Virus record (IMG/VR): IMGVR_UViG_3300042891_002161
Reading direction: 5' to 3' (one strand)
Source of the DNA: a virus
Lineage: Duplodnaviria; Heunggongvirae; Uroviricota; Caudoviricetes
DNA length: 64,000 nt
In this document: positions 400-35,095 of the stretch, one piece after another
How the letters are laid out: every line of letters begins with the position of its first letter
Position numbering within the stretch: the stretch's first letter is position 1
Translations under genes and position numbers: made by a program
The notes under the pieces: generated by a model
What the model saw: the letters and a program-made list of their open reading frames with translations, nothing else
The model's database searches: none
Told to the model about the DNA's origin: nothing

Positions 400-888
400 T
401 CATTTGAAATCTTCGTTGCTTCTATAATTACCTAAATTGATTGTATCAAATTCATCCATACCATCTTTACTTTTAATACCCATCTTTTTTAATACAGTAT
501 TTATAGGTCTTTCTGACCAATCATATTCGCTAGATTTATCATACTCTTTCTTATTATTTACAAATAATTTGGCTTCTTGGTGACCAGAACCACCAAAGTA
601 ATCAGTTGATATACTAGCGATAGTTTTATTTTTACCAAAGGCTCTTACATTAGGAATATGAGTAGTGGTTAAAATACCTTCTGGTAATTCAGTCCATTTT
701 ATTTCTTCGGAATTTTCTTTATTCTCTAAGACAGAGTTAATCTTTTCATTTCTTAACTCTGACTTATTCATTAAATATACGCTTATACAGTGTCCCATAA
801 TTTTGACAAAGATAAAATATAAAAGCCATTTGACAAAATAATATATAGAGTATATAAAAAAAATTATTATAGATGAGTATAATTTCAC
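400..888 (-). CDS. hypothetical protein
   Basis: 162-aa ORF. The first 30-40 residues are hydrophobic low-complexity and overlap the 5' end of the divergent gene at 873. The true start is probably an internal Met near 798 or 771. Confidence 0.4.
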   Translation of the reverse strand: MKLYSSIIIFFIYSIYYFVKWLLYFIFVKIMGHCISVYLMNKSELRNEKINSVLENKENSEEIKWTELPEGILTTTHIPNVRAFGKNKTIASISTDYFGGSGHQEAKLFVNNKKEYDKSSEYDWSERPINTVLKKMGIKSKDGMDEFDTINLGNYRSNEDFK

Positions 889-2531
889 TTTCTACTTTCA
901 CAGATATGTCTGGAGCAGCTACTCCATCATCCGGTATTTTAATAGGTTTAGACACATTAGACGGAAAACTTAAACAAAAAGATTCTTCTGGAGTCGTTAC
1001 TGAAATTGGCTCTGGTGCTGGTTCAGGATCAGCCGGTTCATCGGGTACATCAGGCTCGTCAGGCACATCAGGCTCGTCAGGCACAAGTGGTCTTGCTGGA
1101 TCAGCTGGACCAAGTGGATCAGATAGCGGTAACTCATTAAAATGGATATATGGTAATAGGACTATTAACGGTGAATTTGTATTAGGTAGTAATGACTTTA
1201 CACAATTAAATAATCAAGTTTTCATGAATAATTTTAGTCAAGTTGGTGACTCATCATCTTGGTTAGAATCCCTATCTGATTATAATATCTTATTTCCTGG
1301 TGCTACTTATATAAAAATATCAGAGTTAGTAAATCCTAACATATATGGTATTTATCAAATTACTGGTAATAATGATGATAGTCCATCAGTTTATAGAGGG
1401 TATGATATTACTAAGATTTCAGCTAATGGTACACCCACTGACGGTCTTGAATATTCAATCAGTTGGATTATAATGGGTCAAAATGGATCAAGTGGAACAT
1501 CAGGATCAAGTGGAACATCAGGTACATCGGGAATTAGTGGATCATCAGGTACTTCAGGAACTAGTGGATCATCGGGTACTTCAGGAGTGAATGGATCTTT
1601 CTTTGGTTCATCAGGAACTTCAGGAATTAGTGGATCATCAGGAACTTCAGGAATTAGTGGAACATCAGGATCATCAGGAACATCAGGAGTTGATGGATCA
1701 GGAACATCAGGAACATCAGGAATTAGTGGATCTTCAGGTACTTCAGGAGTTGATGGATCAGGAACATCAGGAACATCAGGAATTAGTGGATCTTCAGGTA
1801 CTTCAGGAGTTGATGGATCAGGAACATCAGGTACTTCAGGAGTTGATGGATCAGGAACATCAGGAACTTCAGGAGTTAATGGATCAGGAACATCAGGAAC
1901 TTCAGGAGTTAATGGATCGGGCACTTCAGGAACATCAGGAATTAGTGGATCATCAGGTACTTCAGGAGTTAATGGATCGGGCACTTCAGGAACATCAGGA
2001 ATTAGTGGATCATCAGGTACTTCAGGAGTTGATGGATCAGGAACATCAGGTACTTCAGGAGTTAATGGATCAGGAACATCAGGAACTTCAGGAGTTAATG
2101 GATCGGGCACTTCAGGAACATCAGGAATTAGTGGATCATCAGGTACTTCAGGAGTTGATGGATCAGGAACATCAGGTACTTCAGGTGTTAATGGATCTTC
2201 CGGAACTTCAGGTGTTGCCGGATCTTCTGGAACTTCAGGTGTTGCTGGATCTTCTGGAACTTCAGGTGTTAATGGATATACCGGAACTTCAGGTGTTGCC
2301 GGAACTTCTGGAACATCTGGAGTTGATGGTGTTAGTCCAATGGCTTTAACAGCGGGTGGATTTGCGGCTCTATGGGGTTTACCAGGAGGAGGTGAAGATT
2401 GTGTTATAGATGGTGTTGCTGGAACTTGGCAATTCTCAGCAGATCCAGGAGTAGGTGGTGTGGAAGGCGCTACATATTCATGTTTTGGACTTAGAATTTG
2501 TTGTGTGCCTAATAACTTCGGTGAGTCGTAA
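873..2531 (+). CDS. collagen-like Gly-X-Y repeat protein (putative fibre/fibril)
   Basis: 552 aa. There are two collagenous segments of uninterrupted G-S/T-S/T triplets (about 45 and about 83 triplets) with X-Y = SS/TS/IS/VD/VN and no proline. A roughly 110-aa globular domain lies between them. The C-terminal domain is Cys-containing and non-collagenous ([12 protein letters not shown]...[10 protein letters not shown]). Confidence 0.85.
1480..2340 (+). repeat. near-identical tandem nucleotide repeats (about 60-nt units) inside the collagen-like gene
   Basis: Units such as gttgatggatcaggaacatcaggaacatcaggaattagtggatcttcaggtacttcagga recur exactly at 1690-1760, 1760-1830, 1900-1970, 1960-2030 and so on. 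Confidence 0.8.
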
Positions 2532-2641
2532 GCCTATGTGCATGTGCAATATTACGATGTAAATCCATAAGGATAAAAAATAAATTAGAATAAACTTAAT
2601 AATTTAATCTAGAGTTAATTCTCCAATTAATATACATTTTT

Positions 2642-2697
2642 AAAGGCTTTATTATAATAGACAAAATTTTCATAAGTCTATATATAATAAAGCCTTT
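2642..2697. terminator. bidirectional hairpin between convergent genes
   Basis: Perfect 15-bp inverted repeat aaaggctttattata ... tataataaagccttt (2642-2656 and 2683-2697), followed by a T-run. Confidence 0.5.
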
Positions 2698-2704
2698 ACT
2701 CTTT

Positions 2705-3535
2705 TTAAATATTCTTTGACTTAAAATAGTTTATAGCTATATCTAATTCAGTTTTATCTTTAATACCATGATATATCATTATATCAGAAGAATTTTCACA
2801 TTTCATATTTGAATTACCAAAGATGCCCATATTATAAGCATCACCAACAATGCTTTCATTTTCTTCAATATGTATTAAAGGCTCGGCTTGAATTGTATTA
2901 AGATAAACTCTATTTAGATTTTGTGTTATTCCTCTTTTCCAAAGAATAATGTTTAATGGTGTTTCATCTTTAAACGGGTAATATTTACGAACATCTTGTA
3001 AAAGATAATTATTGTCACATATAGATTCCCATTCTTTGAAAACATCTGAACACTTATCATTAAAACTAAAAACACAAGTATAAACATAGTTCATACTTCT
3101 TGAATTAACACCAAAGTAATTCATAAGAGGCTCTTCATTGCTAAAATCAATATACTCACCATTTTGGTCTTGACCGTTGCATAAAAATGGATAGTCCCAA
3201 TTACCATATGGAAATAAAGGAAAATCTAAATCATTATTAAGTCTTGATACAGTGAATCTTTTACCAATTAAAATATCTGTATCTACAAATAAAAATTGAC
3301 CACCAAATTTAGAGATAGCATCCAACATAATAGTTGGCTTATAAAACTCAAAAAATCTTTTATTATTATTCCTTTGATAAACTACCTTAGTTAGATTTGG
3401 ATAATCTAATGATGATTCAAACCCAATTGTATAGTATATCATTTGAACCTCATCTTTAACATTTAAAATAATAGATTCAATTAAAGCCTTTGCTTGATAT
3501 TCATAATTTGCGTCTGAAAAAAAAATTATATTCAT
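2705..3535 (-). CDS. putative glycosyltransferase (GT8 / nucleotide-diphospho-sugar transferase-like, DxD)
   Basis: The N-terminus MNIIFFSDANYEYQAKALIESI resembles the GT8 N-terminus. A candidate DxD motif sits in FLFVDTDILIG. Confidence 0.4.
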   Translation of the reverse strand: MNIIFFSDANYEYQAKALIESIILNVKDEVQMIYYTIGFESSLDYPNLTKVVYQRNNNKRFFEFYKPTIMLDAISKFGGQFLFVDTDILIGKRFTVSRLNNDLDFPLFPYGNWDYPFLCNGQDQNGEYIDFSNEEPLMNYFGVNSRSMNYVYTCVFSFNDKCSDVFKEWESICDNNYLLQDVRKYYPFKDETPLNIILWKRGITQNLNRVYLNTIQAEPLIHIEENESIVGDAYNMGIFGNSNMKCENSSDIMIYHGIKDKTELDIAINYFKSKNI

Positions 3536-3542
3536 GTTTTAT

Positions 3543-4160
3543 TTATTTTTTTACATACCAAGATCCTAACCATTCACTAGTTACTCTTAATTCATATCCA
3601 TTTTTTTCACAAAACTCATCTACTGCTGGATTAACACCAAAAACACCCATATAAGTACCATCAGTTCCCCATATAAATTTATCTTTATTATTATCAGAAT
3701 AGTTTGGATCATCATACCAATCAAGACCAAGATAATCATGACCACATATAAATCCACCTTTTTTAACTTTAGGATACCAAAGTTCTATATCCTGAACAAC
3801 ATAATCATAAGCGTGATTAGCATCAATATAAACAAAATCTAATGAATTATCATTAAACATATCAGCGGCTATTTCTGAAGTAGCTCTAACCATTATAGCT
3901 CTATCTTCAAAGCCTTTAATATTCTCCATAGCGTCAGTGTAAACGCCACCATCATATCTACCGTGATTGCTAGAATCATCATAGCCAGATTCTAGTGGTC
4001 TCCAAACGTCTACCATATATAAAGTACCTGACCAGTTGTTCATTATTTGATTTGAGAAGTTGCCTTTGAATGTACCAACCTCAACTCCTTTTCCTTTTGG
4101 AAATTCTTGACCAATATTTCTTATTAGTTCAACTCTTGTTATATTTTCTTTAATCATCAA
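3543..4160 (-). CDS. class I SAM-dependent methyltransferase (TylF/FkbM/MycF-like O-methyltransferase fold)
   Basis: Contains a G-x-G motif (GVEVGTFKG), LDFVYIDANHAYDYV and GGFICGHDY, typical of the Methyltransf_24 family. Confidence 0.6.
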   Translation of the reverse strand: MMIKENITRVELIRNIGQEFPKGKGVEVGTFKGNFSNQIMNNWSGTLYMVDVWRPLESGYDDSSNHGRYDGGVYTDAMENIKGFEDRAIMVRATSEIAADMFNDNSLDFVYIDANHAYDYVVQDIELWYPKVKKGGFICGHDYLGLDWYDDPNYSDNNKDKFIWGTDGTYMGVFGVNPAVDEFCEKNGYELRVTSEWLGSWYVKK

Positions 4161-4188
4161 TTATTATATTGATAAATTAAAGATAGGT

Positions 4189-4500
4189 TTAAATAATTAT
4201 ACCGTTTAATATATTTTCTGATAAAGAAGTAATAAATCTCTCAATTAATTCAATTTCCTCATCTAAATTTCCATCAGTTCTGAATTGTCTAAATGATCCA
4301 GTGTCTAAAAATCTCATAGTATATTCACCTCTATTTGGAAATATAGTAAAGCAGAATCTTGTTCTACCTGAATTAGAAGCTTGTGCCCAGATTCTTCTAT
4401 AGTCTGGGGACAATCTTTCCATTAATAAGTCTTGTAACAACATCAATGTTGTTTCAAATGATGTTCCTCTTCTTGCGTGATATGAATAAATTTCTTCCAT
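4189..4500 (-). CDS. hypothetical protein
   Basis: The ORF track extends it to 4596, across tRNA-Ser. A likely true start is MEEIYSYHARRG near 4500. Confidence 0.35.
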   Translation of the reverse strand: MEEIYSYHARRGTSFETTLMLLQDLLMERLSPDYRRIWAQASNSGRTRFCFTIFPNRGEYTMRFLDTGSFRQFRTDGNLDEEIELIERFITSLSENILNGIII

Positions 4501-4514
4501 AATTTTTAATTTTT

Positions 4515-4602
4515 GCGGAGAGTGAGGGATTCGAACCCTCGGTACCCTTTCAGGTACACACGCTTTCCAAGCGTGCTCCATAAACCACTCGGACAACTCT
4601 CC
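4515..4602 (-). tRNA. tRNA-Ser (anticodon GGA), type II
   Basis: Acceptor GGAGAGT/ACTCTCC. Anticodon arm CACGC-TTGGAAA-GCGTG. Long variable arm. T-arm GAGGGTTCGAATCCCTC. Discriminator G. CCA is not encoded. Confidence 0.8.
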
Positions 4603-4612
4603 AGTTATCTTT

Positions 4613-4699
4613 GCGGAGAGCAGAGTATTCGAAACTCACACATTTTATTGTGCCACTCGCTTAGCAGGCGGTGCTAGTACCCTGACTAGTTTACTCTCC
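4613..4699 (-). tRNA. type II tRNA, Ser-like (possible anticodon GCU; imperfect anticodon stem)
   Basis: Same GGAGAGT acceptor, GTTCGAATACTC T-arm and roughly 87-nt length. The candidate anticodon loop CTGCTAA has only a 3-bp stem in my fold, so it could be a pseudo-tRNA. Confidence 0.5.
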
Positions 4700-4704
4700 A
4701 TTAG

Positions 4705-4787
4705 CGGAAGAAGAGGGAATCGAACCCCCAAAGCCTTACGACCCAGCCGCTTTCAAGGCGGTGTCCTCGTCCATTCGGACTCCTTCC
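4705..4787 (-). tRNA. tRNA-Ser (anticodon UGA), type II
   Basis: Acceptor GGAAGGA/TTCTTCC. Anticodon loop CTTGAAA. T-arm GGGGGTTCGATTCCCTC. Discriminator G. Confidence 0.65.
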
Positions 4788-4792
4788 GGTTG

Positions 4793-4876
4793 CGGAGAGG
4801 TGAGGTATCGATCCCCATACCTTTCGGTACGACTAGTTTTCAAGACTAGCTTTAGCGCCAGCTAAATTACCTCTCC
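4793..4876 (-). tRNA. type II tRNA, Ser-like (anticodon loop CTTGAAA = UGA), with an unusual T-loop
   Basis: Acceptor GGAGAGG/CCTCTCC. Anticodon arm CTAGT-CTTGAAA-ACTAG. Discriminator G. The T-loop ATCGATA is non-canonical. The 5' half overlaps the HNH remnant frame. Confidence 0.55.
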
Positions 4877-5069
4877 TTTCATTAAAGTGATGTATTCTAT
4901 GACAATTTGAACATAAAACAATACACTTTTCTATTTCTTCTAATATCCTATCTTTGTTACAAGATTTTATAATATTTGATACTTCTGATTCTTTTTTACC
5001 AATATGATGAAAATCTAAAGCGGCTGGATGTGAAAATCCACATTCTTGGCATTTTAGAGAACTTTGAAA
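4833..5069 (-). pseudogene. HNH endonuclease domain remnant (no start codon; 3' end reads into a tRNA)
   Basis: The frame translates FQSSLKCQECGFSHPAALDFHHIGKKESEVSNIIKSCNKDRILEEIEKCIVLCSNCHRIHHFNERRGNLAGAK..., a full C-x2-C...HH...N...C-x2-C-H-x2-H HNH core. An in-frame TAA lies immediately upstream and there is no ATG. It lies between tRNA-Arg and the tRNA-Ser block. Confidence 0.55.
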
Positions 5070-5093
5070 TTAAAAATATGTTCGTATCACTTG

Positions 5094-5166
5094 TAGTCCC
5101 AGAAGGATTCGAACCTTCATTTTTGGTTTCGTAGACCAATGTCCTGTCCAGTTGAACGATGGAACC
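5094..5166 (-). tRNA. tRNA-Arg (anticodon ACG)
   Basis: Acceptor GGTTCCA/TGGGACT (with G-U pairs). Anticodon arm TTGGT-CTACGAA-ACCAA. T-arm GAAGGTTCGAATCCTTC. Discriminator A. Confidence 0.75.
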
Positions 5167-5170
5167 ATAT

Positions 5171-5215
5171 AAAAACAAAAAACCCTTCAAACTTGAGTTC
5201 GAAGGGTTTCTTTAA
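5171..5215. terminator. rho-independent, bidirectional-type hairpin
   Basis: A-run, then the inverted repeat ACCCTTCaaacttgagttcGAAGGGT, then TTTCTTT. It lies downstream of the minus-strand gene at 5370-5972. Confidence 0.6.
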
Positions 5216-5263
5216 TATCTTTTTTACTTGACTATTATGAACACGATCGAACCTCACTCATTT

Positions 5264-5291
5264 TTGACGAGCGACTTGACGATTTTGACGA
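5264..5291. promoter_or_regulatory. three direct TTGACGA repeats in the 5' region of the minus-strand gene cluster
   Basis: TTGACGA at 5264-5270, 5276-5282 and 5285-5291, within about 100 nt downstream of the stop of gene 5370-5972. Confidence 0.25.
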
Positions 5292-5369
5292 TGTGTAAAT
5301 AATTGTTTTCATAATCTTATTGTATATATTACAAATGTAATCTTTGTTTTTGTTATTTCCTAATTTTTT

Positions 5370-5972
5370 TTATACTAAATCTTCAGCATCAGCTGGAAGA
5401 GTTATTCTAACAAGTTGTCTTTTAACATCTTCTTCTAATGGTAAAGACTCGTGAATGAATGTTGAATTACCCCAATATAAAGTATTACTCTTTAAGTTGA
5501 AGTTTTCCATTTTAGAAAGATCTAAATGTGAACAATCTCCACCTTGGTTTGGTTGACCTTCATAATCACCATTCCAACCTTTACAAGCTTCATAAGAAGA
5601 AACAATTAACATTCCACCTTTTTCAGAACAATATTGTTCTTCGTGTTTATCTCTTGGTAAAAATCTACCATCTTCTCCAGTTAACCAGCCGCTTCCGCCG
5701 CCACCCCATCCAAATAGATAGTTTCCATCAGTATGTGGTCCACCTCTTCTATGAGATTCACCTTTACTAACAATTTTTTCATCAATTGTTAAATATGCTT
5801 TACCTGTTTTCTTAGGTGAGCAATCAACAATCTCTTTAAGAACAGATTCCCATCTTTCATAACCTATTGGTAAAGTAGGATTCTCCATATCGAATTCGTG
5901 CATATAAACTCTATCACCTCTGTATTCTGGAAGAGATATCGGTTTAATCATTTTTGATTTACTTTTTAACAT
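5370..5972 (-). CDS. hypothetical protein, possible 2OG-Fe(II) oxygenase-like fold
   Basis: Candidate HxD (GGPHTDGNY) and a distal His (NSTFIHESLP) about 95 residues apart. The assignment is weak. Confidence 0.3.
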   Translation of the reverse strand: MLKSKSKMIKPISLPEYRGDRVYMHEFDMENPTLPIGYERWESVLKEIVDCSPKKTGKAYLTIDEKIVSKGESHRRGGPHTDGNYLFGWGGGGSGWLTGEDGRFLPRDKHEEQYCSEKGGMLIVSSYEACKGWNGDYEGQPNQGGDCSHLDLSKMENFNLKSNTLYWGNSTFIHESLPLEEDVKRQLVRITLPADAEDLV

Positions 5973-5988
5973 AATGTTATTTAATTTT

Positions 5989-6171
5989 TTAGTAGTTATC
6001 GTAGAAGTAATCTTTAAGATCTTTTTCTCCGTAACCTTTTTCTCTTAGGACTTTATACATTTCATAAGATGATTTGTTCTTTTTATTAGTATCAATAAAA
6101 TCTTCAATTTCATCTTTTTTAGAAACTTTTTCGCCTTTTACCTTTTCATTAAATTTTTGTAAATGTTTCAT
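5989..6171 (-). CDS. small Lys/Glu-rich hypothetical protein
   Basis: 60-aa ORF with a TAATATATAC-type motif upstream on the minus strand. Confidence 0.4.
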   Translation of the reverse strand: MKHLQKFNEKVKGEKVSKKDEIEDFIDTNKKNKSSYEMYKVLREKGYGEKDLKDYFYDNY

Positions 6172-6221
6172 TTTTTAATCTTTGATTTTATGTATATATT
6201 AAAATCAATATTTATATTTTG

Positions 6222-6350
6222 TGGGGATGGTTGGATTCGAACCAACGACCTTATAATTTCAAAATATACGAAGTAACTCTCTCAATCAACACTCTTTACG
6301 AGGTAAAATTTCAAAAGAGATAGTTTTCTCTACCACTGAGCTACATCCCC
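6222..6350 (-). tRNA. tRNA-like gene with a ~55-nt insertion (intron-like or disrupted; isotype unresolved)
   Basis: The 5' end GGGGATGTAGCTCAGTGGTAGAG and the 3' end AGGTCGTTGGTTCGAATCCAACCATCCCCA are canonical. The middle holds about 55 extra nt with a duplicated TTTTGAAATT segment (candidate anticodon loop: GAA or UGA). Confidence 0.45.
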
Positions 6351-6413
6351 AAATGAATTTATTACGTTACTTGAAAAGTGCCAAGTCGATAAAATTCTAA
6401 ACGGTCTCATAAC

Positions 6414-6558
6414 TAGGGAGAGAGGCAGGGCTCGAACCTGCGACCACGGATTTAAAAGATCGAAGTAACTCTTAACATCACTACTAATATTGATAATCAA
6501 TATCAGAGAATCCTTGTCAGAGTAATTGCGTGCTCTACCAACTGAGCTACTCTCTCCA
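6414..6558 (-). tRNA. tRNA-like gene with a ~70-nt structured insertion (His-like G-1/C73 architecture; isotype unresolved)
   Basis: The 5' end G-GAGAGAG-TA-GCTCAGTTGGTAGAGC and the 3' end GTGGTCGCAGGTTCGAGCCCTGC-CTCTCTC-C are canonical. The central insertion contains nested perfect hairpins (ATATTGAT/ATCAATAT; ACTCT/AGAGT). Confidence 0.45.
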
Positions 6559-6567
6559 TATTATTTG

Positions 6568-6650
6568 TGATTCCGGTGGGACTCGAACCCACGGTGGACT
6601 TTCATCGACAGATTAAGAGTCTGTTGCAATCGCCGCTATGCGACGGAATC
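6568..6650 (-). tRNA. atypical tRNA: Lys-type anticodon loop (CUU) on a type II-like scaffold
   Basis: Acceptor GATTCCG/CGGAATC. Anticodon arm ACAGA-CTCTTAA-TCTGT. D-loop contains AGCGGC. About 15 nt lie between the anticodon stem and the T-stem. T-arm GTGGGTTCGAGTCCCAC. Discriminator A. Confidence 0.5.
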
Positions 6651-6657
6651 ATTTTTG

Positions 6658-6740
6658 TGCGTCTGGTGGGACTCGAACCCACGGTTGAAATTAATCGACT
6701 GGTTAAAAGCCAGCTGCTATAGCCACTAAGCGACAGACGC
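6658..6740 (-). tRNA. atypical tRNA: anticodon UUU on a type II-like scaffold (paralogue of 6568 and 6750)
   Basis: Acceptor GCGTCTG/CAGACGC. Anticodon arm GCTGG-CTTTTAA-CCAGT. A 15-nt variable region. Identical T-arm GTGGGTTCGAGTCCCAC. Discriminator A. Confidence 0.5.
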
Positions 6741-6749
6741 AATACTTAG

Positions 6750-6834
6750 TGATCCTGGTGGGACTCGAACCCACGGTTGAGAATTAACTCTACTGGTTAA
6801 AAGCCAGTTGCTATAGCCGCTAAGCGACAGGATC
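6750..6834 (-). tRNA. atypical tRNA: anticodon UUU on a type II-like scaffold
   Basis: Acceptor GATCCTG/CAGGATC. Anticodon arm ACTGG-CTTTTAA-CCAGT. Variable region AGAGTTAATTCTCAACC forms a GAG/CTC hairpin. Same T-arm as 6568 and 6658. Confidence 0.5.
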
Positions 6835-6847
6835 ATTTGTATTTTAG

Positions 6848-6920
6848 TGATCCCGGTGGGGTTTGAACCCACAACCTTCCGATTAAAAGTCGGAAGCTCC
6901 ACCAATTGAGCTACGGAATC
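6848..6920 (-). tRNA. tRNA-Lys (anticodon UUU), canonical type I
   Basis: GATTCCG-TA-GCTCAATTGGTGGAGC-T-TCCGA-CTTTTAA-TCGGA-AGGTT-GTGGGTTCAAACCCCAC-CGGGATC-A. Confidence 0.85.
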
Positions 6921-6934
6921 ATTGTCTTTTTGAG

Positions 6935-6960
6935 GGCAACGATCCGTATGAATCGTTGCC
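6935..6960. other. 9-bp stem hairpin in a tRNA spacer (possible processing or termination signal)
   Basis: GGCAACGAT-ccgtatga-ATCGTTGCC. Confidence 0.3.
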
Positions 6961-7007
6961 TAGCGTTTATATTTCAATTTTGTTTTCATTTCTTTTAATT
7001 TATTTTA

Positions 7008-7079
7008 GCACGCCATTGAGGAATTGAACCCCACCGTCGAGGTTTTGGAGACCTGACCGACACCTTGTCTGTATGACGT
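7008..7079 (-). tRNA. tRNA-Trp (anticodon CCA)
   Basis: Acceptor ACGTCAT/ATGGCGT. Anticodon arm AGGT-CTCCAAA-ACCT. T-arm TGGGGTTCAATTCCTCA. Discriminator G. Confidence 0.65.
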
Positions 7080-7091
7080 ATTTTATTTTAG

Positions 7092-7173
7092 CACAGGTAA
7101 AGAGACTCGAACTCTTAGCCACTCTTACGAATTACCGGGTTGGAGCCGGCTGGTCACACCAATGAGTACCTGT
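7092..7173 (-). tRNA. atypical tRNA with candidate anticodon loop CTCCAAC (CCA) and an extended (~17-nt) variable region
   Basis: Acceptor ACAGGTA/TACCTGT is perfect. Anticodon arm GCCGG-CTCCAAC-CCGGT. T-arm AAGAGTTCGAGTCTCTT. The identity is uncertain. Confidence 0.4.
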
Positions 7174-7179
7174 ATGTTG

Positions 7180-7251
7180 TGGAGACTGACGGAATCGAAC
7201 CGACCTCTTCCGGGCTTCAACCGGACGCTAAACCAACTTAGCTAAGTCTCC
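7180..7251 (-). tRNA. tRNA-Phe (anticodon GAA)
   Basis: Acceptor GGAGACT/AGTCTCC. Anticodon arm TCCGG-TTGAAGC-CCGGA. T-loop TTCGATT. Discriminator A. Confidence 0.75.
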
Positions 7252-7254
7252 TTT

Positions 7255-7331
7255 TGGGTGAATGACGGGTTACGATCCCGCTACCTCTGGTACCACAAAC
7301 CAGCGCTCTACCGATTGAGCTACATTCACCA
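7255..7331 (-). tRNA. tRNA-His (anticodon GUG) with encoded G-1 and 3' CCA
   Basis: G-GTGAATG-TA-GCTCAATCGGTAGAGC-G-CTGGT-TTGTGGT-ACCAG-AGGTA-GCGGGATCGTAACCCGT-CATTCAC-C-CA. Confidence 0.85.
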
Positions 7332-7484
7332 TAATACCCCACTTCATCAGATTACCGGACTGACTGCCATATGGGAGTGGGGGTCTCCTGTTTATCTCAG
7401 GACTCCGTGGAACCTCCCGGTAACGATCCGGGCTCCCTGGATTTTCAGTCCAGTGCTTTCACCTGATTAGCTTAGGTTCCAATT
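7332..7484 (-). ncRNA. unassigned GC-rich (about 50% GC) structured spacer between the two His tRNAs
   Basis: Local GC is far above the 28-30% background. Hairpins include CCCGG-atcgtta-CCGGG and TCCTG-agataaa-CAGGA, and a CTGATGA element is present. No tRNA cloverleaf could be drawn. Confidence 0.3.
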
Positions 7485-8627: not shown

Positions 8628-9167
8628 ATGGATTTAAATAATTATTTAAGAAAAGACTATGCTACCCCATCCACATATTATGGATATTCAAGTGACTCAA
8701 ATGCTGCTTCTACAGATTTTAATTGGTCTATTAGAAAGGTAACAACATCTGGTAATGTTGAAACTGTTACTTGGACTAATGGTGATCCTGGAAAACCATT
8801 TGCTAAATGGAATGATAGAGTTAACTCATTCGCAACACCAACTGGTTCATTAGGTCTTACATGTAGTAAAGGAACTCAAATAGGAAATAATGTACCATTA
8901 AATATCACTTGGAACCAATTATCTGGTGTTAATAGATATCAAGTAGTTGTTTCAAAAAATAGTATAGTTTACTCAGATTTGGGATCTCAAATTTATTATA
9001 ATCCAAACACAAATCAAATTACTAAAGAGATAGTAAATGATGGTATTTATATTTATAATTTTGCTGAGTCAACTAATGGTCTTTCACCAAGTAATATTTA
9101 CTCTATTACAGTAACAGCTGTTAATGTTGCTGGATCTTCAGCATCAACTGTTACTATTACTACTTAA
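8628..9167 (+). CDS. Ig/FN3-like beta-sandwich protein (possible capsid decoration or adhesin)
   Basis: C-terminal YSITVTAVNVAGSSASTVTITT, Thr/Ser-rich strands and a WTNGDPG motif. A TAATATATAC motif lies about 21 nt upstream. Confidence 0.45.
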   Translation: MDLNNYLRKDYATPSTYYGYSSDSNAASTDFNWSIRKVTTSGNVETVTWTNGDPGKPFAKWNDRVNSFATPTGSLGLTCSKGTQIGNNVPLNITWNQLSGVNRYQVVVSKNSIVYSDLGSQIYYNPNTNQITKEIVNDGIYIYNFAESTNGLSPSNIYSITVTAVNVAGSSASTVTITT

Positions 9168-9564
9168 TAACTTCTTTGATAGATTCAGAAACCATTTTCT
9201 TATCAGCCGGAAGAGTTGCAAATTCTTTCATAATAGCACCGATTTGAGTGATGCCAGAATTTACAAGTTCTGTTACTTTAGCAGTAACTTCTTCTTTAGA
9301 CATTTGTGTTGGAAGGTAAACTTCAACAATAGCCAATTCAAGTTTAGATTTTTCGTCATTGCTCAAAGTGATAGTTTCTTTTAAAGACTTAACAGTTTTT
9401 GTTAAAATCTTCATTACCTCAGCATCTGAAAGATTATCAGAACCAATATTCTTTTCTACGGTTTGAATTTCTCCTTTAACAACAGATAGTATGCTTTTTG
9501 CTACCATGTTTTTAGACTTAAATGCTGTCATAAAGTCTGCGTTGATTTTTTCTTTCAGTGTCAT
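9160..9564 (-). CDS. GatB/YqeY domain protein
   Basis: Full-length match of the pattern to bacterial YqeY (DFMTAFKSKN...LSVVKGEIQTVEKN...LSDAEV..IL.K.VKSLKET...EL.IVE.YLP.QMS.EEV...V.ELV...G....IG.IMK). Confidence 0.7.
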   Translation of the reverse strand: MTLKEKINADFMTAFKSKNMVAKSILSVVKGEIQTVEKNIGSDNLSDAEVMKILTKTVKSLKETITLSNDEKSKLELAIVEVYLPTQMSKEEVTAKVTELVNSGITQIGAIMKEFATLPADKKMVSESIKEVIK

Positions 9565-12065: not shown

Positions 12066-12500
12066 TTACATACTACGACGGATCTCACGATCCATATCTC
12101 TTTTTTTGATTGTTTCTCTTTTATCGTATAACTTTTTCCCTTTAACAACACCCAATTTAACTTTAACTCTGTTATGTGCTGTAAATATTTCTAACGGAAC
12201 CATAGTTGTTCCTTTATCTTGAAGTAATTTTTCAATTCTATCAATTTCTTTCCGATTAAGAAGTAATTTCTTATCTCTATTTTCATCATGTGGTTGAAAT
12301 GCGTGACTTTGTGAGTATCTAGCAACTTTCATGTTTTTAATCCAAATTTCACCTTTTTGTATGTAAGCAAAACAATCAGCAATAGTTACATTACCTTTTC
12401 TAATAGATTTAACCTCGCTACCCAATAGCATTACACCTGCGTCAAAGTCTTCCAACACAAAGTATTCATAATACGCTTTTCTATTAGTTGTTATTTTCAT
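12066..12500 (-). CDS. smpB: SsrA-binding protein SmpB
   Basis: Alignable along its length to bacterial SmpB (KAYYEYFVLEDFDAGVMLLGSEVKSIR.G...IADCFA...GE.W..N..V.....S.....D..R.KKLLLNRKEID..EK....KG.T.VPL.......VKV.L.V.KGKK.YDKRETIKKRD..REI.R). Confidence 0.85.
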   Translation of the reverse strand: MKITTNRKAYYEYFVLEDFDAGVMLLGSEVKSIRKGNVTIADCFAYIQKGEIWIKNMKVARYSQSHAFQPHDENRDKKLLLNRKEIDRIEKLLQDKGTTMVPLEIFTAHNRVKVKLGVVKGKKLYDKRETIKKRDMDREIRRSM

Positions 12501-14831: not shown

Positions 14832-15602
14832 TTACATTAACATTTCATCAATAGCGTCAAACTCTTTCTTAGTTTCACGAACTAAGATAGCTCTTCCGTT
14901 ACGAATTTGTGATTTAACTGTTGATAGGTTTAGGTTAAGTTTATCAGAGATATCTTTATAAGACATTCTTTTTAACTCACGCATTTCAATTACATCACGA
15001 TAAGGATTCTTCAAGTTCTGAATATGTTTCTTCATAATGTCAGCTTTCTTAGCATGAATCTCATGCATGAAATTGTCACCTTCGTCTTCTTGAATGAAGT
15101 CTTTCATTGTTGTGCCTTCATCATCAAACTCAATATCTAATGACATTGTTTTCTTTTCGTTTTTAAGGTCTTGTAATGCTAGATTTTTTGCTATTGTAAA
15201 TAGCCAGGTAGAGAATTGAGATTTTTCTTTTTCATATTTCTCAATCTTCTCAAAAGCCGCCATGAATGAATCTGTTGAGATATCTTCTGCCTTTTGAGGG
15301 TCATTAGTAATTTTAGCTGTAAAATATACTAGTTTTGGGTAATACTTTGTGTACAATGAAGAGAAGTCTTTACCCGTTCTTTCTCTAAAGATTTTTTCTT
15401 GTTCACTGAATAAAATCGCTTTTGATTCCATAATTTGCCGTTTCTTTTTTTGTTGAGGAGTCATTAATTCATCCTCAATATTGCCTTCTTTTGCCGTTAA
15501 TGGTGATTGCTCACCCGAATAATTTATATCATATATATCAGCAAAAGTTGTGTCTGTTTCAAAGTTTTTTTCACTTTGATTTTCTAGTTTTATTTCTATC
15601 AT
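14832..15602 (-). CDS. sigma-70 family (ECF-like) RNA polymerase sigma factor
   Basis: Region 2-like FMAAFEKIEKYEKEKSQFSTWLFTIAKNLALQDLK. Region 4.2-like helix-turn-helix MRELKRMSYKDISDKLNLNLSTVKSQIRNGRAILV. Confidence 0.75.
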   Translation of the reverse strand: MIEIKLENQSEKNFETDTTFADIYDINYSGEQSPLTAKEGNIEDELMTPQQKKKRQIMESKAILFSEQEKIFRERTGKDFSSLYTKYYPKLVYFTAKITNDPQKAEDISTDSFMAAFEKIEKYEKEKSQFSTWLFTIAKNLALQDLKNEKKTMSLDIEFDDEGTTMKDFIQEDEGDNFMHEIHAKKADIMKKHIQNLKNPYRDVIEMRELKRMSYKDISDKLNLNLSTVKSQIRNGRAILVRETKKEFDAIDEMLM

Positions 15603-27299: not shown

Positions 27300-28397
27300 A
27301 TGAATATGAATAATAACACAATTGGAAATGAGGAAATGATGGATATCTTTGATGAAACCATATTTACTCGCAAAGGTACTCGCAACAAAAGCACTAAAGA
27401 GTACCAAGAAATGATTAAACTTTATAAACTTGACGAAATCGCTATTCCAGAAGAAGGTCAAGTAGTATCCGCTAAATACGTTGGCATGGCAGCAGGTCAA
27501 TTTGTATTCAGTGTAGTTGGATACAAAGATGACGTAAGAGTTGACGATAAAGTTGGTGAATCAAAATACTTCAAGAACTTAAACTTGAATGATATGATTG
27601 ACGTTTTAATCACTGAAGTTAATCAAGATGCTTTTATGATTAAAGGAAGTGTATCTTCTCTTTATGAATCAAGAGCTCATGCTAAACTTAAAGCACTTGT
27701 TGAAGGTGAATCAGTTATGGTTACAGTTAAGAGTCTTAACCCAGCTGGTTACGATGTTGAATTAAATCACGGTGGTGTTACACTTCCAGGATTTATGCCA
27801 AACACCTTAGCCGGAATCAACAAGCTACACGACCCAATGTCTATCGTAGGACAGACATTCAGTGTAATGATTGAGTCTTATGCTCAAAACGAAGGAACTT
27901 ATATCGTTTCAAGACGTAAGTATCTTCAAACTCTTATCCCTGATGCGGTTAAAGAACTTGAATATAATAAAATATATCAAGGTCACGTTACAGGAACTAC
28001 ACCATTTGGTGTGTTCGTGGAGTTCAACGAATGCTTAACTGGAATGATTCACAAGGCAAACGTTAATCCTGAATGGGCAGAGAAGTTAACTTCAATCACA
28101 CCAGGATTTGAAATTGACTTCTACATCAAAGAAGTGATTAAAGATAAAATTATCTTGACTCAAATTCTTCGTGAGACTCTTTGGGACAACATCAAAAACG
28201 GTCAAATCATTGAAGGTACCGTTAAAGACACCAAAGCATTTGGTACTTTAGTAAACCTTGATGATGAGACAGTGGGTCTTATCCACACTTCAGAAATGGA
28301 GAAGCTTGGTAAGAAATTCACTTCGGGTCAACCGATTAAAGTGAAAGTTTTAAGTGTAGATCGCATGTCTCGTAAAATCTTCTTGACCTTAGGTTAA
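27300..28397 (+). CDS. ribosomal protein S1-like protein (about 4 S1/OB domains)
   Basis: Repeated S1 signatures: GQVVSAKYV..AAGQFVFSV; GHVTGTTPFGVFVEF.ECLTGMIHKANV; GQIIEGTVKDTKAFGTLVNLDDETVGLIHTSEM...GQPIKVKVLSVDRMSRKIFLTLG. Confidence 0.7.
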   Translation: MNMNNNTIGNEEMMDIFDETIFTRKGTRNKSTKEYQEMIKLYKLDEIAIPEEGQVVSAKYVGMAAGQFVFSVVGYKDDVRVDDKVGESKYFKNLNLNDMIDVLITEVNQDAFMIKGSVSSLYESRAHAKLKALVEGESVMVTVKSLNPAGYDVELNHGGVTLPGFMPNTLAGINKLHDPMSIVGQTFSVMIESYAQNEGTYIVSRRKYLQTLIPDAVKELEYNKIYQGHVTGTTPFGVFVEFNECLTGMIHKANVNPEWAEKLTSITPGFEIDFYIKEVIKDKIILTQILRETLWDNIKNGQIIEGTVKDTKAFGTLVNLDDETVGLIHTSEMEKLGKKFTSGQPIKVKVLSVDRMSRKIFLTLG

Positions 28398-28415
28398 GAT
28401 TGATTCTACCAGAAA

Positions 28416-28450
28416 AAGAAAAGCCTCAGACTTATCTGAGGCTTTTTTTA
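28416..28450. terminator. rho-independent terminator (bidirectional)
   Basis: AAAAGCCTCAGActtaTCTGAGGCTTTTTTT. Confidence 0.7.
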
Positions 28451-28927
28451 TTTATATAGTTGTAATATTAGATTAAATCTATCAGGTACATCACCTTCAT
28501 CATATCCACCATATTCTAAATGAACTTTTGATTCTTTATTAGTATGAGTATTACTACCAATGTATTGATAATCTTCTTCTTCTTTTATCTTATTAAAACA
28601 AGATTGAACTTCTAATACCAATTCATTTAATTCCTCAGTGTATTTAACTAAATCTATTATTCTTGAAGGTCTATATTTTTTAGAAGCCATATTAGCCAAG
28701 TTAAGAAATATTCTATATCTTTTGACTTTTTGTTTATAACTATTTCCACCCAAACCTTGTCCTTGATAGTGTGTTATTTCACTTTCATATAATTCAGAAG
28801 TGGCGCCCATATCTATAAACTCAGCAAATACAGCATCAAAGAATTTTTTATCATCTTCTGTAAAGTCTTTAGCTAATCTATCTTCATCTGGAACCCAATT
28901 TTCATTAAATCTATTTAAGTATCTCAT
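28448..28927 (-). CDS. hypothetical acidic protein, CTS-like N-terminus (MRYLNRFNEN)
   Basis: 159 aa. Member of the N-terminal leader family. Confidence 0.5.
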   Translation of the reverse strand: MRYLNRFNENWVPDEDRLAKDFTEDDKKFFDAVFAEFIDMGATSELYESEITHYQGQGLGGNSYKQKVKRYRIFLNLANMASKKYRPSRIIDLVKYTEELNELVLEVQSCFNKIKEEEDYQYIGSNTHTNKESKVHLEYGGYDEGDVPDRFNLILQLYK

Positions 28928-29406
28928 GATTTTACTTCAATTACATATTGACCAGGGTAAGCTCTGAAATCCGACTTAACCATTACCGTAATAACAGTTA
29001 ATCTGAATTCATTATCACCTGGCACTAATTGACAAACAACATTTAAGTTATTTGTTTTATTTTTAATTAAAAATCTATTTGGCTCACCTTCTTTGACACC
29101 TTTAGTTGGGTAATTATCTTCTAATTGATAGATATTGAATTTATCTTGCATGAGAGCAATAGTCAACTCTTCAATTGCTAATTCAATTGTGTCAATGATA
29201 TCCTCATCTTTAATTTGATTTTCTAAAGCACCGTGTCTGAATTGTCTATCACCAGCATGATTTACTTTCTCAACATCAATTCTGATTTCAACAGGTTCTT
29301 TTAAGTAAGCAATTTCCTTAGGAGGTCTACTCGCAGCAATTCTTCTATCAATATAAGGATTGTTAAAAGCTTCAAATGTTTTTAGATTTTTCATTAATAT
29401 ACCCAA
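28924..29406 (-). CDS. hypothetical protein, CTS-like N-terminus (MKNLKTFEAFNN)
   Basis: 160 aa with a 4-nt overlap to the downstream gene. Confidence 0.5.
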   Translation of the reverse strand: MGILMKNLKTFEAFNNPYIDRRIAASRPPKEIAYLKEPVEIRIDVEKVNHAGDRQFRHGALENQIKDEDIIDTIELAIEELTIALMQDKFNIYQLEDNYPTKGVKEGEPNRFLIKNKTNNLNVVCQLVPGDNEFRLTVITVMVKSDFRAYPGQYVIEVKS

Positions 29407-29432
29407 TTTTTGTATTGGTATATATTAATTTA

Positions 29433-30176
29433 TTAAGCCAGTATTTTTAAAACAATATCTTCTGTAAACTCTCTCATATCATCAACACTAATTGTGTCAA
29501 TTGTATCTTTAGAAGAGTGACAGTTGTATAACATAGAAAAGTCTAAGTAAGTATTATCATCCCATTTAACTTGAGATTTACCTTCATTCAAAGGTGGAAT
29601 AGGATTAATAACACAAGAGTCAATTCCATTCTTTCTAAAAGTAACAGAATCGTTATAAGGAGTATTTGTGATAGGACAATCAAAGATTGATTTAATATGA
29701 TCCGATAGTTTACCAGGATAATTACCAATAAAGAAATACTTACCACCTTTACCAGTTAATTCTAAGTTAAGAACCCAGTCAATAGTGCCAAAATAACCTT
29801 CATTAATCTGTTCTGATGCTCTTTGAGAGCCTAAACCACCACATTCTTCACCATCTAAAAGAACAACGTTTATATGAGGCATTAACTTTTTAATTGATAT
29901 AGCATTAATAACAGATGCTGAGTTGTCGTTAGCATTATCAATGTGTGGATTACTAACATCGTGATGAGCAACCACCATTCTATCAGAGTCGCCTTTTAAG
30001 ATAAGATTATAACAAGTAGTTCCTCTTGACTGATAAGTATCTAACTCATAGTCAATATTCTCAGACTGTAAAAGATCCATAAGAAATTGTACCCTTGGTG
30101 TAGGTTTATCTTCATTTGAGTAAACACTACCAAAGTTTCTTACTTTACAAAAATCATATATCTTATTATACAACAT
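29433..30176 (-). CDS. M28-family zinc peptidase-like protein
   Basis: HHDV (HxD), NANDNSASVINAISI (the GxDDxxG(V/A) metal-ligand region) and LLDGEECGGLGSQ (the EE motif). Confidence 0.55.
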   Translation of the reverse strand: MLYNKIYDFCKVRNFGSVYSNEDKPTPRVQFLMDLLQSENIDYELDTYQSRGTTCYNLILKGDSDRMVVAHHDVSNPHIDNANDNSASVINAISIKKLMPHINVVLLDGEECGGLGSQRASEQINEGYFGTIDWVLNLELTGKGGKYFFIGNYPGKLSDHIKSIFDCPITNTPYNDSVTFRKNGIDSCVINPIPPLNEGKSQVKWDDNTYLDFSMLYNCHSSKDTIDTISVDDMREFTEDIVLKILA

Positions 30177-34630: not shown

Positions 34631-35095
34631 TTATATTTCTATGTTAATTTTATTGAATGCTTCTTGTAAATCTTTTTTAGAAAACTTATTGAGTACAAAG
34701 GTAAGTAAATCTTCTGAATTGTCAAATTTATTTAAAATATAATCTTTCATAAACTCGGTATAGTCAGATTTATCAGCTATTCCAAGTTGTAACATTTTTA
34801 CATTTCTATCCCACTGAACTCCACCGTTAACAACAAATTTGCCCTCAATATTTTTAATTTCAGTAGTAAATTTTCTACGATAGTCTGTTGTGGCTGGTGT
34901 AGTTACTCCTGTGTTATAATCATAAGTTTCCCAATCACGAATAGTCATTTCATGAACTCGTTCTGGATAATCATGTATATTGTCGCACAAATCTTTTGCG
35001 TCTCTTAAACCAAGACCACTACACTCTTTTATTAGCTTAACAAAAGCCAATTTCTGAGTTGTTGGTTGGATTAATTTTATTTTAATAGTTTTCAT
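34631..35095 (-). CDS. hypothetical protein
   Basis: 154-aa ORF. Confidence 0.5.
   Translation of the reverse strand: MKTIKIKLIQPTTQKLAFVKLIKECSGLGLRDAKDLCDNIHDYPERVHEMTIRDWETYDYNTGVTTPATTDYRRKFTTEIKNIEGKFVVNGGVQWDRNVKMLQLGIADKSDYTEFMKDYILNKFDNSEDLLTFVLNKFSKKDLQEAFNKINIEI

Follow-up and report, generated by a model that had tools for sequence, protein, structure and literature searches.

The window analyzed here is a 64,000-nucleotide (nt) stretch of the IMG/VR virus record IMGVR_UViG_3300042891_002161, and its left end carries a gene for a collagen-like fiber protein that faces two genes for putative sugar-modifying enzymes. The fiber gene occupies positions 873 to 2531, including the stop codon, on the plus strand and encodes 552 amino acids. 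On the minus strand lie a glycosyltransferase (GT) gene (2705 to 3535; 276 amino acids), which begins 173 nt past the end of the fiber gene, and a methyltransferase (MT) gene (3543 to 4160; 205 amino acids). A preliminary description, made from the sequence without database searches, had presented the fiber gene and its neighbors as convergent, which is how they are arranged. The GT and MT genes share a strand and are separated by 7 nt, with the MT gene upstream, and are therefore probably cotranscribed. In what follows, related loci and contigs carry numbers that begin with L, and related proteins carry numbers that begin with P.

The collagen-like fiber

From its N terminus, the fiber protein consists of a noncollagen segment (amino acids 1 to 51; positions 873 to 1025), a short first run of 11 Gly-X-Y triplets (amino acids 52 to 84; 1026 to 1124), a beta-barrel-plus-helix domain (amino acids 85 to 201; 1125 to 1475), the main shaft of 86 triplets (amino acids 202 to 488; 1476 to 2336), and a C-terminal tip of 64 amino acids (2337 to 2528), all encoded on the plus strand. 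The protein matches the Pfam Collagen family (PF01391; E = 6e-26; 90.4 bits against a cut-off of 27.2) and PHROG tail-fiber families (best E = 7.5e-27), the latter largely over the repeat. A tblastn search of phage records with the fiber protein returned no match, probably owing to low-complexity masking. The N-terminal segment, which presumably attaches the fiber to the virion, is conserved in the orthologs of L001 to L003 (phmmer E = 1e-24) and L021 and in P0053, P0054, and P0055.

The preliminary description had called the product a Pro-free, Ser/Thr-rich collagen, and the composition of the shaft bears this out. Its 287 residues include 0 Pro, 99 Gly, 94 Ser, 44 Thr, 19 Val, 9 Asn, 8 Ile, and 7 Asp, so that Ser and Thr together make up 48%; the protein as a whole contains 143 Gly, 135 Ser, 62 Thr, and 10 Pro, and the first Gly-X-Y run holds a sole Pro triplet, GPS. 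The claim that the repeats are almost entirely GSS and GTS was overstated: these triplets dominate but account for 58 of the 86 (67%; 43 GTS and 15 GSS), the rest being GIS (8), GVN (8), GVD (7), GVA (3), and others (2). The X position is taken by Thr, Val, Ser, or Ile, and the Y position is taken by Ser, Asn, or Asp. Nor is the lack of Pro the oddity for which it had been taken, given that comparison with relatives makes it the norm for this class of aquatic-phage fibers. Pro-free Ser/Thr collagens of 838 to 1750 amino acids are encoded in L004, L008, L013, and L015, and the 735-kb phage LR756501 encodes a 3488-residue protein with 848 Gly-X-Y triplets (27% Gly, 26% Ser, 25% Thr, and 1% Pro). 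A cluster of giant collagen-like genes in the latter phage (L022; LR756501.1, positions 385413 to 416244) includes a Pro-rich member (1198 amino acids; 22% Pro). The same cluster contains a 223-residue open reading frame (ORF; locus positions 27771 to 28439) with the N terminus 'IYCINLDHRTDRW', which resembles GT25 enzymes by eye only; the GT25 family includes animal collagen galactosyltransferases.

Within the fiber gene lies a tandem-repeat core (1611 to 2277, plus strand), delimited by Tandem Repeats Finder, a repeat search, and a script. The periods reported by Tandem Repeats Finder are 33, 60, 93, 186, and 219 nt. The near-perfect 60-nt repeats of the preliminary description turned out to be two exact tandem duplications (~1683 to 1802 and ~1899 to 2018), which are joined by a shorter exact duplication of 33 nt, at 1853, and by a longer one of 219 nt, the copies of which (1664 to 1882 and 1883 to 2101) are 94% identical. 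Several ORFs lie opposite this gene or out of frame with it (764 to 1084 and 1478 to 2110, minus strand; 1591 to 2349, plus strand), are rich in Pro/Asp/Val or Glu/Leu/Gln, and are artifacts of the repeats. In L021, gene calling produced a 203-residue ORF on the opposite strand and reduced the true fiber gene to a 68-residue tail; a scaffold gap lies within the repeat of this ortholog.

The Gly-X-Y register of the shaft is broken at regular intervals. Among its 98 Gly-to-Gly spacings, 86 equal three residues, 11 equal two, and one equals four. All 11 short spacings occur in the context GV[D/N]-GS-GTS and represent an identical one-residue deletion (G-S-G), and the long spacing is a GSFFG insertion. 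Triplet runs of 14, 11, and 18 are perfect, and the central 160 residues contain all 11 G-S-G interruptions as well as the GSFFG insertion; over amino acids 275 to 435, breaks come every 11 or 20 residues, with just three or six regular triplets between them. Related Ser/Thr collagens show 0 to 2 breaks per 45 to 380 triplets, and the closest ortholog, that of L001, has four or five. Because the sister proteins are nearly uninterrupted, the pattern in the window looks as if units of 33 and 60 nt with the 3-nt deletion had recently been amplified.

Such breaks raise the question of whether the Gly/Ser/Thr region forms a triple helix at all or is instead a flexible spacer, possibly disordered or otherwise folded, a reading that would be compatible with glycosylation of the region as well as with an unrelated role for the enzymes next to it. 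We consider a spacer quite unlikely. The identical, closely spaced deletions and the complete absence of Pro from 287 residues would fit it, as would the impression that the window carries an amplified defective unit rather than a selected design; furthermore, Ser, Thr, Val, Asn, and Asp all have a lower triple-helix propensity than Pro or hydroxyproline in host-guest peptides. Yet Gly-X-Gly interruptions are tolerated in some animal collagens, breaks of the same type occur in L001 as well, and a helix could nucleate at the perfect stretches at the two ends (14 plus 11 triplets and 18 triplets). The gene has kept an intact reading frame, and strict Gly-X-Y periodicity without Pro is held over hundreds of triplets by the family as a whole, which argues that the periodicity is under selection.

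The domain between the two collagen runs, which extends from a 'W-x-Y' to a 'YSISW' motif, is rare in sequence and recurs in fold among viral collagen and tail-fiber proteins. With these 117 residues as a query, a word-index search was empty, and an exhaustive search matched 18 clusters among 1.84 billion representatives; the collagen-like members retrieved bear the domain beside Gly-X-Y repeats, sometimes in two to four copies. An AlphaFold2 (AF2) model of the domain shows a beta-barrel with one helix (predicted local distance difference test [pLDDT], 89.8). The model had no match in the PDB (best template modeling [TM] score, 0.44, below 0.45), and in BFVD it matched 42 predicted viral proteins at TM scores of 0.54 to 0.78. 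Where the BFVD matches are named, most bear the label 'Collagen triple helix repeat' and come from uncultured Caudovirales; among the rest are proteins of the Synechococcus cyanophages S-H34 and S-CAM7, annotated as 'baseplate wedge tail fiber connector' or 'tail fiber', and collagen-like proteins from Marseillevirus, Indivirus, and Klosneuvirus.

The tip, which contains four Cys (amino acids 510, 537, 543, and 544), is exchangeable among orthologs. It has just four database matches, and the tip of P0071 is 100% identical. This Cys-rich type is common to the window, L021, and L104. The orthologs L001, P0053, P0055, P0056, and P0059 still share the N terminus and the mid-domain with the window protein but end in an unrelated tip of ~110 amino acids with the motif 'IKDEAGSA...ITI...IDG'. 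Derivation of the short tip from this commoner type by a frameshift was rejected, as no remnant was detected in any frame. Modular tip exchange of this kind is typical of receptor-binding fibers. In addition, the Ser/Thr collagens that lie beside GT homologs in L008, L013, L055, and L068 end in Peptidase_S74 (E = 1e-15 to 1e-17), an endosialidase-type intramolecular chaperone that is a hallmark of tail fibers and tail spikes. Architecture, modeled folds, and relatives point to the product as a tail-fiber-type host-recognition fiber. It is thus a known kind of phage collagen-like fiber, and the new feature is the Pro-free shaft with periodic G-S-G breaks.

The glycosyltransferase and the methyltransferase

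The GT has no Pfam or NCBIfam family at E <= 0.1 and no PHROG match. Among PDB sequences, a sequence search found no relative, and a profile search gave chance matches only. The protein has homologs in 52 clusters, and an alignment of 22 sequences, some as little as 40% identical, shows D8, Y11, D85-x-D87, H256, G257, and K259 to be invariant, so that the presumed catalytic DXD, His, and Lys residues hold up and the GT appears to be functional. When the AF2 model of the GT (pLDDT, 91; predicted TM score, 0.90) was searched with Foldseek, the matches were GT6 enzymes (1k4v, 4cj8, ABO transferases, and BoGT6a) and the GT8 enzyme LgtC (1ss9), with E values of ~1e-8 and TM scores of ~0.5. Since the TM scores reach only ~0.5, the GT represents a divergent family. 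On the strength of the model and the invariant motifs, it can be confidently predicted to be a retaining GT-A glycosyltransferase that resembles GT6 and GT8. The label "GT8-like" in the preliminary description is apt for the fold and for motifs such as DXD, but membership in GT8 at the sequence level (Pfam Glyco_transf_8; PDB) is not borne out.

The distribution of this family is narrow. A tblastn search of 50,697 GenBank phage records found no copy of the GT, nor does the family occur in 185,579 prokaryotic (bacterial and archaeal) species genomes; members were recovered from >80 metagenome contigs and 14 IMG/VR contigs. The GT thus combines a known fold with a sequence family that is undescribed in the libraries and is met only in phage-like metagenome contigs. 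One contig of the Global Ocean Sampling survey (L024; AACY023331444.1) encodes a GT that is 99% identical to that of the window, and therefore nearly the same phage was sampled there. Some relatives of the GT (P0037, P0039, P0041 to P0044, and P0047; 460 to 474 amino acids) possess an extra N-terminal domain of ~185 residues, which faintly resembles, below threshold (best E = 0.00096; 19.6 bits, with the cut-off at 27), the N-terminal domain of the protein O-heptosyltransferase TibC. PADLOC, run on all five proteins, found nothing.

The MT is a class I S-adenosylmethionine (SAM)-dependent methyltransferase of the Methyltransf_24 family (PF13578; E = 8e-16; 59.3 bits against a cut-off of 26.3), with a weak match to PF04989, RMNT_CmcI (rhamnosyl-O-methyltransferase/CmcI; E = 0.046). 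It had been announced as TylF-type, an assignment that we replace with Methyltransf_24, as the TylF profile (PF05711) was not among the matches at E <= 0.1. The motifs for the SAM cofactor and the metal are invariant on alignment: G25-V-E27-x-G29 (GVE-G-F), D51, D113-A-N115-H116, and H141-D142. In the PDB, a plain sequence search found no match, and a profile search found a single relative, 6g7d (E = 0.0045), a mycobacterial sugar O-methyltransferase. Judging from family and motifs, the MT appears to be functional, is probably metal dependent, and probably acts on sugar hydroxyls. Synechococcus phage ACG-2014f (L023; NC_026927, positions 28196 to 30106) encodes a Methyltransf_24 homolog with 35% identity just downstream of tail-fiber and tail genes, flanked by a 2-oxoglutarate-Fe(II) oxygenase and a 253-residue protein with the DXD motif 'LIDADVL'. 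The latter protein was tried as a member of the GT family and rejected, there being no detectable relationship.

The MT also matches the PHROG family phrog_2675, 'DNA methyltransferase' (E = 5e-22), and RefSeq labels the cyanophage homolog likewise. Taken at face value, these labels would make the GT and MT a system for modification of the phage DNA, with hypermodified bases that protect against host restriction, and phage GTs that glycosylate DNA are well known (Pyle 2024, as cited in PMC12619734). A solitary GT, as found in L028, would fit such a system as well. Nonetheless, DNA modification strikes us as very improbable. The labels look like automatic annotation, and the family of the MT, its weak RMNT_CmcI match, and its sole PDB relative all lead away from DNA. 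A genuine Dam-type N6-adenine DNA methyltransferase is already encoded elsewhere in the window (39347 to 40069, plus strand; E = 2e-16), and among the window ORFs scanned there is no hydroxymethylase or thymidylate-synthase-type gene. Furthermore, the related gene clusters adjoin structural genes, and the T4 DNA glucosyltransferases have a GT-B fold, in contrast to the GT-A model of the window GT.

A second glycosyltransferase, with a DXD sugar-binding region, is encoded at 52453 to 53091 on the plus strand (Pfam PF04488, Gly_transf_sug; E = 3e-8); we assign this type to GT32. The preliminary description had mentioned this gene. The family match is sound, but no link to the fiber came to light: the gene lies ~50 kb from the fiber locus, next to an unknown ORF and a gene for a DnaJ-like protein, and it has no homolog in any related locus.

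The optional cassette and its association with collagen fibers

Together, the genes for the GT and the MT make up a cassette of 1.47 kb (2715 to 4187) that shows presence/absence polymorphism among close relatives. L021 aligns to window positions 2283 to 2714 and picks up again at 4188 to 4879 (89% identity), with the cassette absent in between; L104 contains the cassette, and its flanks are 90 to 95% identical to those of L021. In the junction alignment, 'TTTAAATA[T/A]T' is present at both edges of the cassette as a 10-bp AT-rich repeat. Beside the left edge, RNA folding identifies a 22-bp hairpin (2641 to 2698) followed by a U-run (2703 to 2707), a feature that spans 2641 to 2707 on the plus strand, has a folding energy of -23.9 kcal/mol (z = -8.6; none of 200 shuffles equally stable), and is conserved in L021. 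This hairpin looks like the intrinsic terminator of the fiber gene and marks the left cassette edge. A simple scan for promoter and terminator consensus sequences did not rise above shuffles and missed the long hairpin.

Among related loci, the two enzymes are often associated with each other and, in many cases, with collagen genes. In 13 of the first 20 loci, the GT has an MT homolog either within ~300 nt or as part of a neighboring GT4 fusion gene; the fusion proteins include an MT-GT (P0014) and GT4-Methyltransf_24 proteins in L004 to L006. The fiber and GT genes are 37 to 131 nt apart in the nearest relatives, L001 to L003 and L025 to L027, where the three-gene arrangement is kept. GTs with 55 to 60% identity sit in larger glyco-clusters (GT4-MT, GT34, and GT9) beside Pro-free GTS collagens of 838 and >1122 amino acids; the mid-domain of the 838-residue collagen, from L004, aligns with that of the window. 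When GTs with at least 6 kb of flank were clustered into lineages at 70% identity, a Pro-poor Ser/Thr collagen ORF was found, by raw count, within ~8 kb of the GT in 13 of 28 lineages, and within 4.4 kb in 11 of these 13. The recurrence beside Ser/Thr collagens spans GT identities of 33% to 86%. A link between fiber and enzymes thus has some comparative support. With an optional cassette and a nearby collagen in 13 of 28 lineages, glycosylation of the fiber is plausible but unproven.

We offer a tentative reading, one that is quite possible while falling short of probable: the locus would encode a trimeric fiber of the tail-fiber class, the shaft of which is O-glycosylated by the optional GT, with the attached sugar then methylated by the MT. 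The analysis establishes the gene structures, the modeled folds, the conserved catalytic motifs, the cassette polymorphism, and the recurrent gene neighborhood; the presence of the fiber in the virion, the triple helix of its shaft, the acceptor, the sugar, and the site of methylation are what we infer. The trimer would comprise, in order, the attachment segment, the short collagen run, the beta-barrel, the Pro-free shaft, and the Cys-containing tip. Slippage at the 33-, 60-, and 219-nt repeats would let the length of the shaft change, and the exchangeable tip would contact the host. In the infected cell, the GT, with a nucleotide sugar and a divalent metal bound at the DXD motif, would O-glycosylate exposed Ser and Thr residues of the shaft or, alternatively, extend a glycan already present there. 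The MT would then cap the transferred sugar with a methyl group, and the resulting fiber would be hydrated, protease resistant, and antigenically altered. With gain and loss of the cassette, the fiber surface would come to vary between sister phages.

Several observations weigh against fiber glycosylation. With eleven G-S-G breaks in register, the shaft may be unable to form a continuous triple helix. The cassette is dispensable, given that L021 keeps the fiber gene and its tip without GT or MT, and L028 encodes a GT (72% identical) among nonstructural genes, with no MT or collagen within 10 kb. The enzymes therefore cannot be required for assembly of the fiber. No collagen was found near the GT in 15 of the 28 lineages. 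MT adjacency did not predict a collagen after clustering (6 of 10 versus 7 of 18 lineages; Fisher P = 0.43); an apparent enrichment of collagens at GT-plus-MT loci (11 of 18 versus 5 of 27, counted by locus) was discarded, as the effect was gone after clustering at 70%. In the window, the fiber locus lies amid tRNA and translation-type genes, with no recognizable structural module around it. Finally, the window contains no genes for nucleotide-sugar synthesis. Genes for a DegT/DnrJ/EryC1 aminotransferase and a PglD-like hexapeptide acetyltransferase, which serve nucleotide-amino-sugar synthesis, are present in L001 (14189 to 15402) and L002 (9418 to 10631) only, ~5 kb beyond the fiber gene; the window begins too far to the right to include the counterpart of this region.

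Many of these points would be explained if the fiber were unmodified and the cassette were an unrelated accessory ("moron") module that landed past the fiber terminator, a possibility to be taken seriously even if we find it somewhat doubtful. The substrate of such a module could be another virion protein, a host envelope polysaccharide or lipid carrier (with superinfection exclusion or receptor masking as the effect), or a small molecule. The clean insertion-deletion, bordered by 10-bp AT-rich repeats just past the terminator hairpin, favors this reading, as do the fiber without a cassette in L021, the GT without fiber or MT in L028, and the 15 lineages without a nearby collagen. The related multi-GT clusters (GT4, GT34, and GT9) even resemble polysaccharide-synthesis clusters. 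Against this stands the absence of the GT family from the bacterial and archaeal genomes searched, which is unexpected for a borrowed envelope-polysaccharide enzyme. Moreover, the GT family recurs beside Ser/Thr collagen fibers over a broad range of GT identities, and the related clusters adjoin sheath, terminase-like, and portal-like genes, not lysogeny or early genes.

Glycosylation of the fiber by the cassette enzymes can be extended to a broader proposal, which we judge unlikely as a whole. In aquatic and often huge phages that form a widespread group, Pro-free Ser/Thr collagen tail fibers would be both stabilized and diversified in this way: sugars would take the place of Pro and hydroxyproline as the stabilizer of the triple helix, attached and methylated by a phage-exclusive GT-A family and its MT partner. 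Gain and loss of the cassette, changes in repeat number, and exchange of the tip would together act as a population-level surface switch that affects host range or evasion of defense.

Genomic setting and comparison with known systems

The preliminary description had invoked the fibrils of giant viruses, a setting that is not supported by gene content, relatives, or DNA matches: the window belongs to the genome of a huge tailed bacteriophage, a freshwater phage in the model proposed here. An origin from a giant eukaryotic virus is ruled out by a sigma-70 factor, SmpB, the Dam methyltransferase, and an NAD-dependent ligase encoded in the window and is further countered by tail sheath and Peptidase_S74 genes in relatives. 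The window has a G+C content of ~29%, and its closest matches at the DNA level are uncultured phages of 634 to 735 kb. Related loci lie on contigs of 167 to 177 kb, and the clusters lie on contigs of up to 324 kb, with tail sheath, terminase-like, and portal-like genes close by. Nine tRNA genes are clustered at 4515 to 7480 (minus strand), including four consecutive tRNA-Lys genes, three of which are unusually long (84 to 86 nt), and two tRNA-Phe genes. The translation- and transcription-type genes, namely those for SmpB (12066 to 12500), YqeY (9160 to 9564), an S1-domain protein (27300 to 28397), a ribosomal L7/L12-like fragment (34631 to 35095), and the sigma-70 factor (14832 to 15602), are typical of huge phages. 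Further products include an SbcC-like protein, CoaE, and a Sir2-family protein (42737 to 43471, minus strand; E = 2e-47).

Two small genes frame the locus. On the left and divergent from the fiber gene, the minus-strand ORF at 400 to 888 encodes a conserved protein of ~131 amino acids from an internal ATG (MGHCISVYLMNKSE...). It had no family match but stays beside the fiber gene in L001 to L003 and L021, and its product could be an accessory or chaperone protein of the fiber. On the right lies a 135-residue ORF (4189 to 4596, minus strand) that L001 and L021 have conserved. The N-terminal part of this ORF results from read-through of a tRNA-Ser gene (4515 to 4602), and the true start is probably an internal Met ('MEEIYSY...'). 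Near the other end of the window, a gene at 62685 to 63407 (minus strand) encodes a Laminin_G_3 protein, that is, a concanavalin A-like, lectin-type protein of 240 amino acids (E = 1.6e-16). A protein of this Pfam family also lies near a Ser/Thr collagen in L004, and in both L008 and the 735-kb phage LR756501, collagen genes are adjoined by ORFs with similar-looking N termini.

If the proposed modification is real, it would explain how a Gly-Ser/Thr triple helix can be stable without Pro, would add a new glycosyltransferase sequence family, so far confined to phage-like contigs, and would place abundant freshwater phages alongside mycobacteriophages and giant viruses as users of virion glycosylation. 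The sister genomes with the cassette (L104 and the window) and without it (L021) would then constitute a natural experiment on the role of the modification. If the proposal is wrong, the locus is one more repeat-rich phage fiber gene beside an unrelated accessory cassette.

Among known systems, the closest to the window protein are the collagen-like tail fibers of aquatic Caudovirales, including cyanophages. They share with it the N-terminal segment, a Gly-X-Y shaft encoded by repeats, a globular insert that corresponds in fold to the mid-domain (TM scores of 0.54 to 0.78), and a variable tip, and sister proteins possess Peptidase_S74. The window protein differs from them in a shaft that has no Pro and is built almost exclusively from Gly, Ser, Thr, Val, Ile, Asn, and Asp, in its 11 G-S-G breaks, in a tip with four relatives, and in the location of its gene outside a structural module. 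A bacterial counterpart is BclA of the Bacillus anthracis/B. cereus exosporium, an O-glycosylated collagen-like filament that lacks hydroxyproline and is rich in hydroxy amino acids (PMC8968730). GPT triplets, in which Pro fills X and Thr fills Y, predominate in the repeats of BclA, whereas the window shaft has Thr, Ser, Val, or Ile in X and Ser, Asn, or Asp in Y, with no Pro; the enzymes of the two systems are unrelated in sequence, and BclA is glycosylated, whereas glycosylation of the window fiber is hypothetical. BclA glycans contain methylated sugars, and the number of BclA repeats varies between strains.

The pairing of a GT with an MT has parallels in viruses of eukaryotes that decorate their own structural proteins with enzymes they encode. 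In PBCV-1, A064R combines a retaining-type GT-A domain with a DXD motif, a second GT domain, and a class I SAM-dependent sugar O-methyltransferase domain, and A061L is a separate sugar O-methyltransferase of 209 amino acids; in Mimivirus, L230 glycosylates viral collagen-like proteins (PMC9614988). The cassette follows the same logic of a GT next to an MT, down to the fusions among its relatives. PBCV-1 and Mimivirus are, however, giant viruses of eukaryotes, and the acceptors are Asn-linked capsid glycans or, for L230, hydroxylysine, in contrast to the Ser and Thr of a phage fiber proposed here. In phages, mycobacteriophages decorate their structural proteins with their own GTs as an accessory trait (Freeman et al. 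2023, cited in PMC12619734). The acceptors given in that account are the C termini of capsid and tail-tube subunits of actinobacteriophages, whereas the candidate in the window is a collagen-like fiber, and the GT has an MT partner.

As an enzyme, the GT is best compared with the GT6 and GT8 families (alpha-1,3-galactosyltransferase, ABO, BoGT6a, and LgtC), which gave the best fold matches. Its D-x-x-Y motif, DXD motif, and C-terminal His and Lys resemble the nucleotide- and metal-binding residues of LgtC. The GT8-type C-terminal motif is H-x-x-G-x-x-K, unlike the H-G-x-K of the window GT, and no sequence match to Glyco_transf_8 or Glyco_transf_6 was found. O-glycosylation of Ser-rich repeats in the cytoplasm, by dedicated GTs encoded beside their substrate, is known from the serine-rich repeat glycoproteins of Gram-positive bacteria and from protein heptosyltransferases of the TibC/Aah type, and GT8-family enzymes extend the glycan in such systems. 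The likeness lies in the GT9 genes of related clusters and the subthreshold TibC match of the 460-residue GT relatives; unlike those systems, the window encodes no initiating enzyme of the GtfA/B type, and its substrate would be Gly-X-Y periodic. Collagen-like tail fibers and virus-encoded glycosylation are each known, and what would be new is a dedicated enzyme pair acting on a Pro-free phage collagen fiber.

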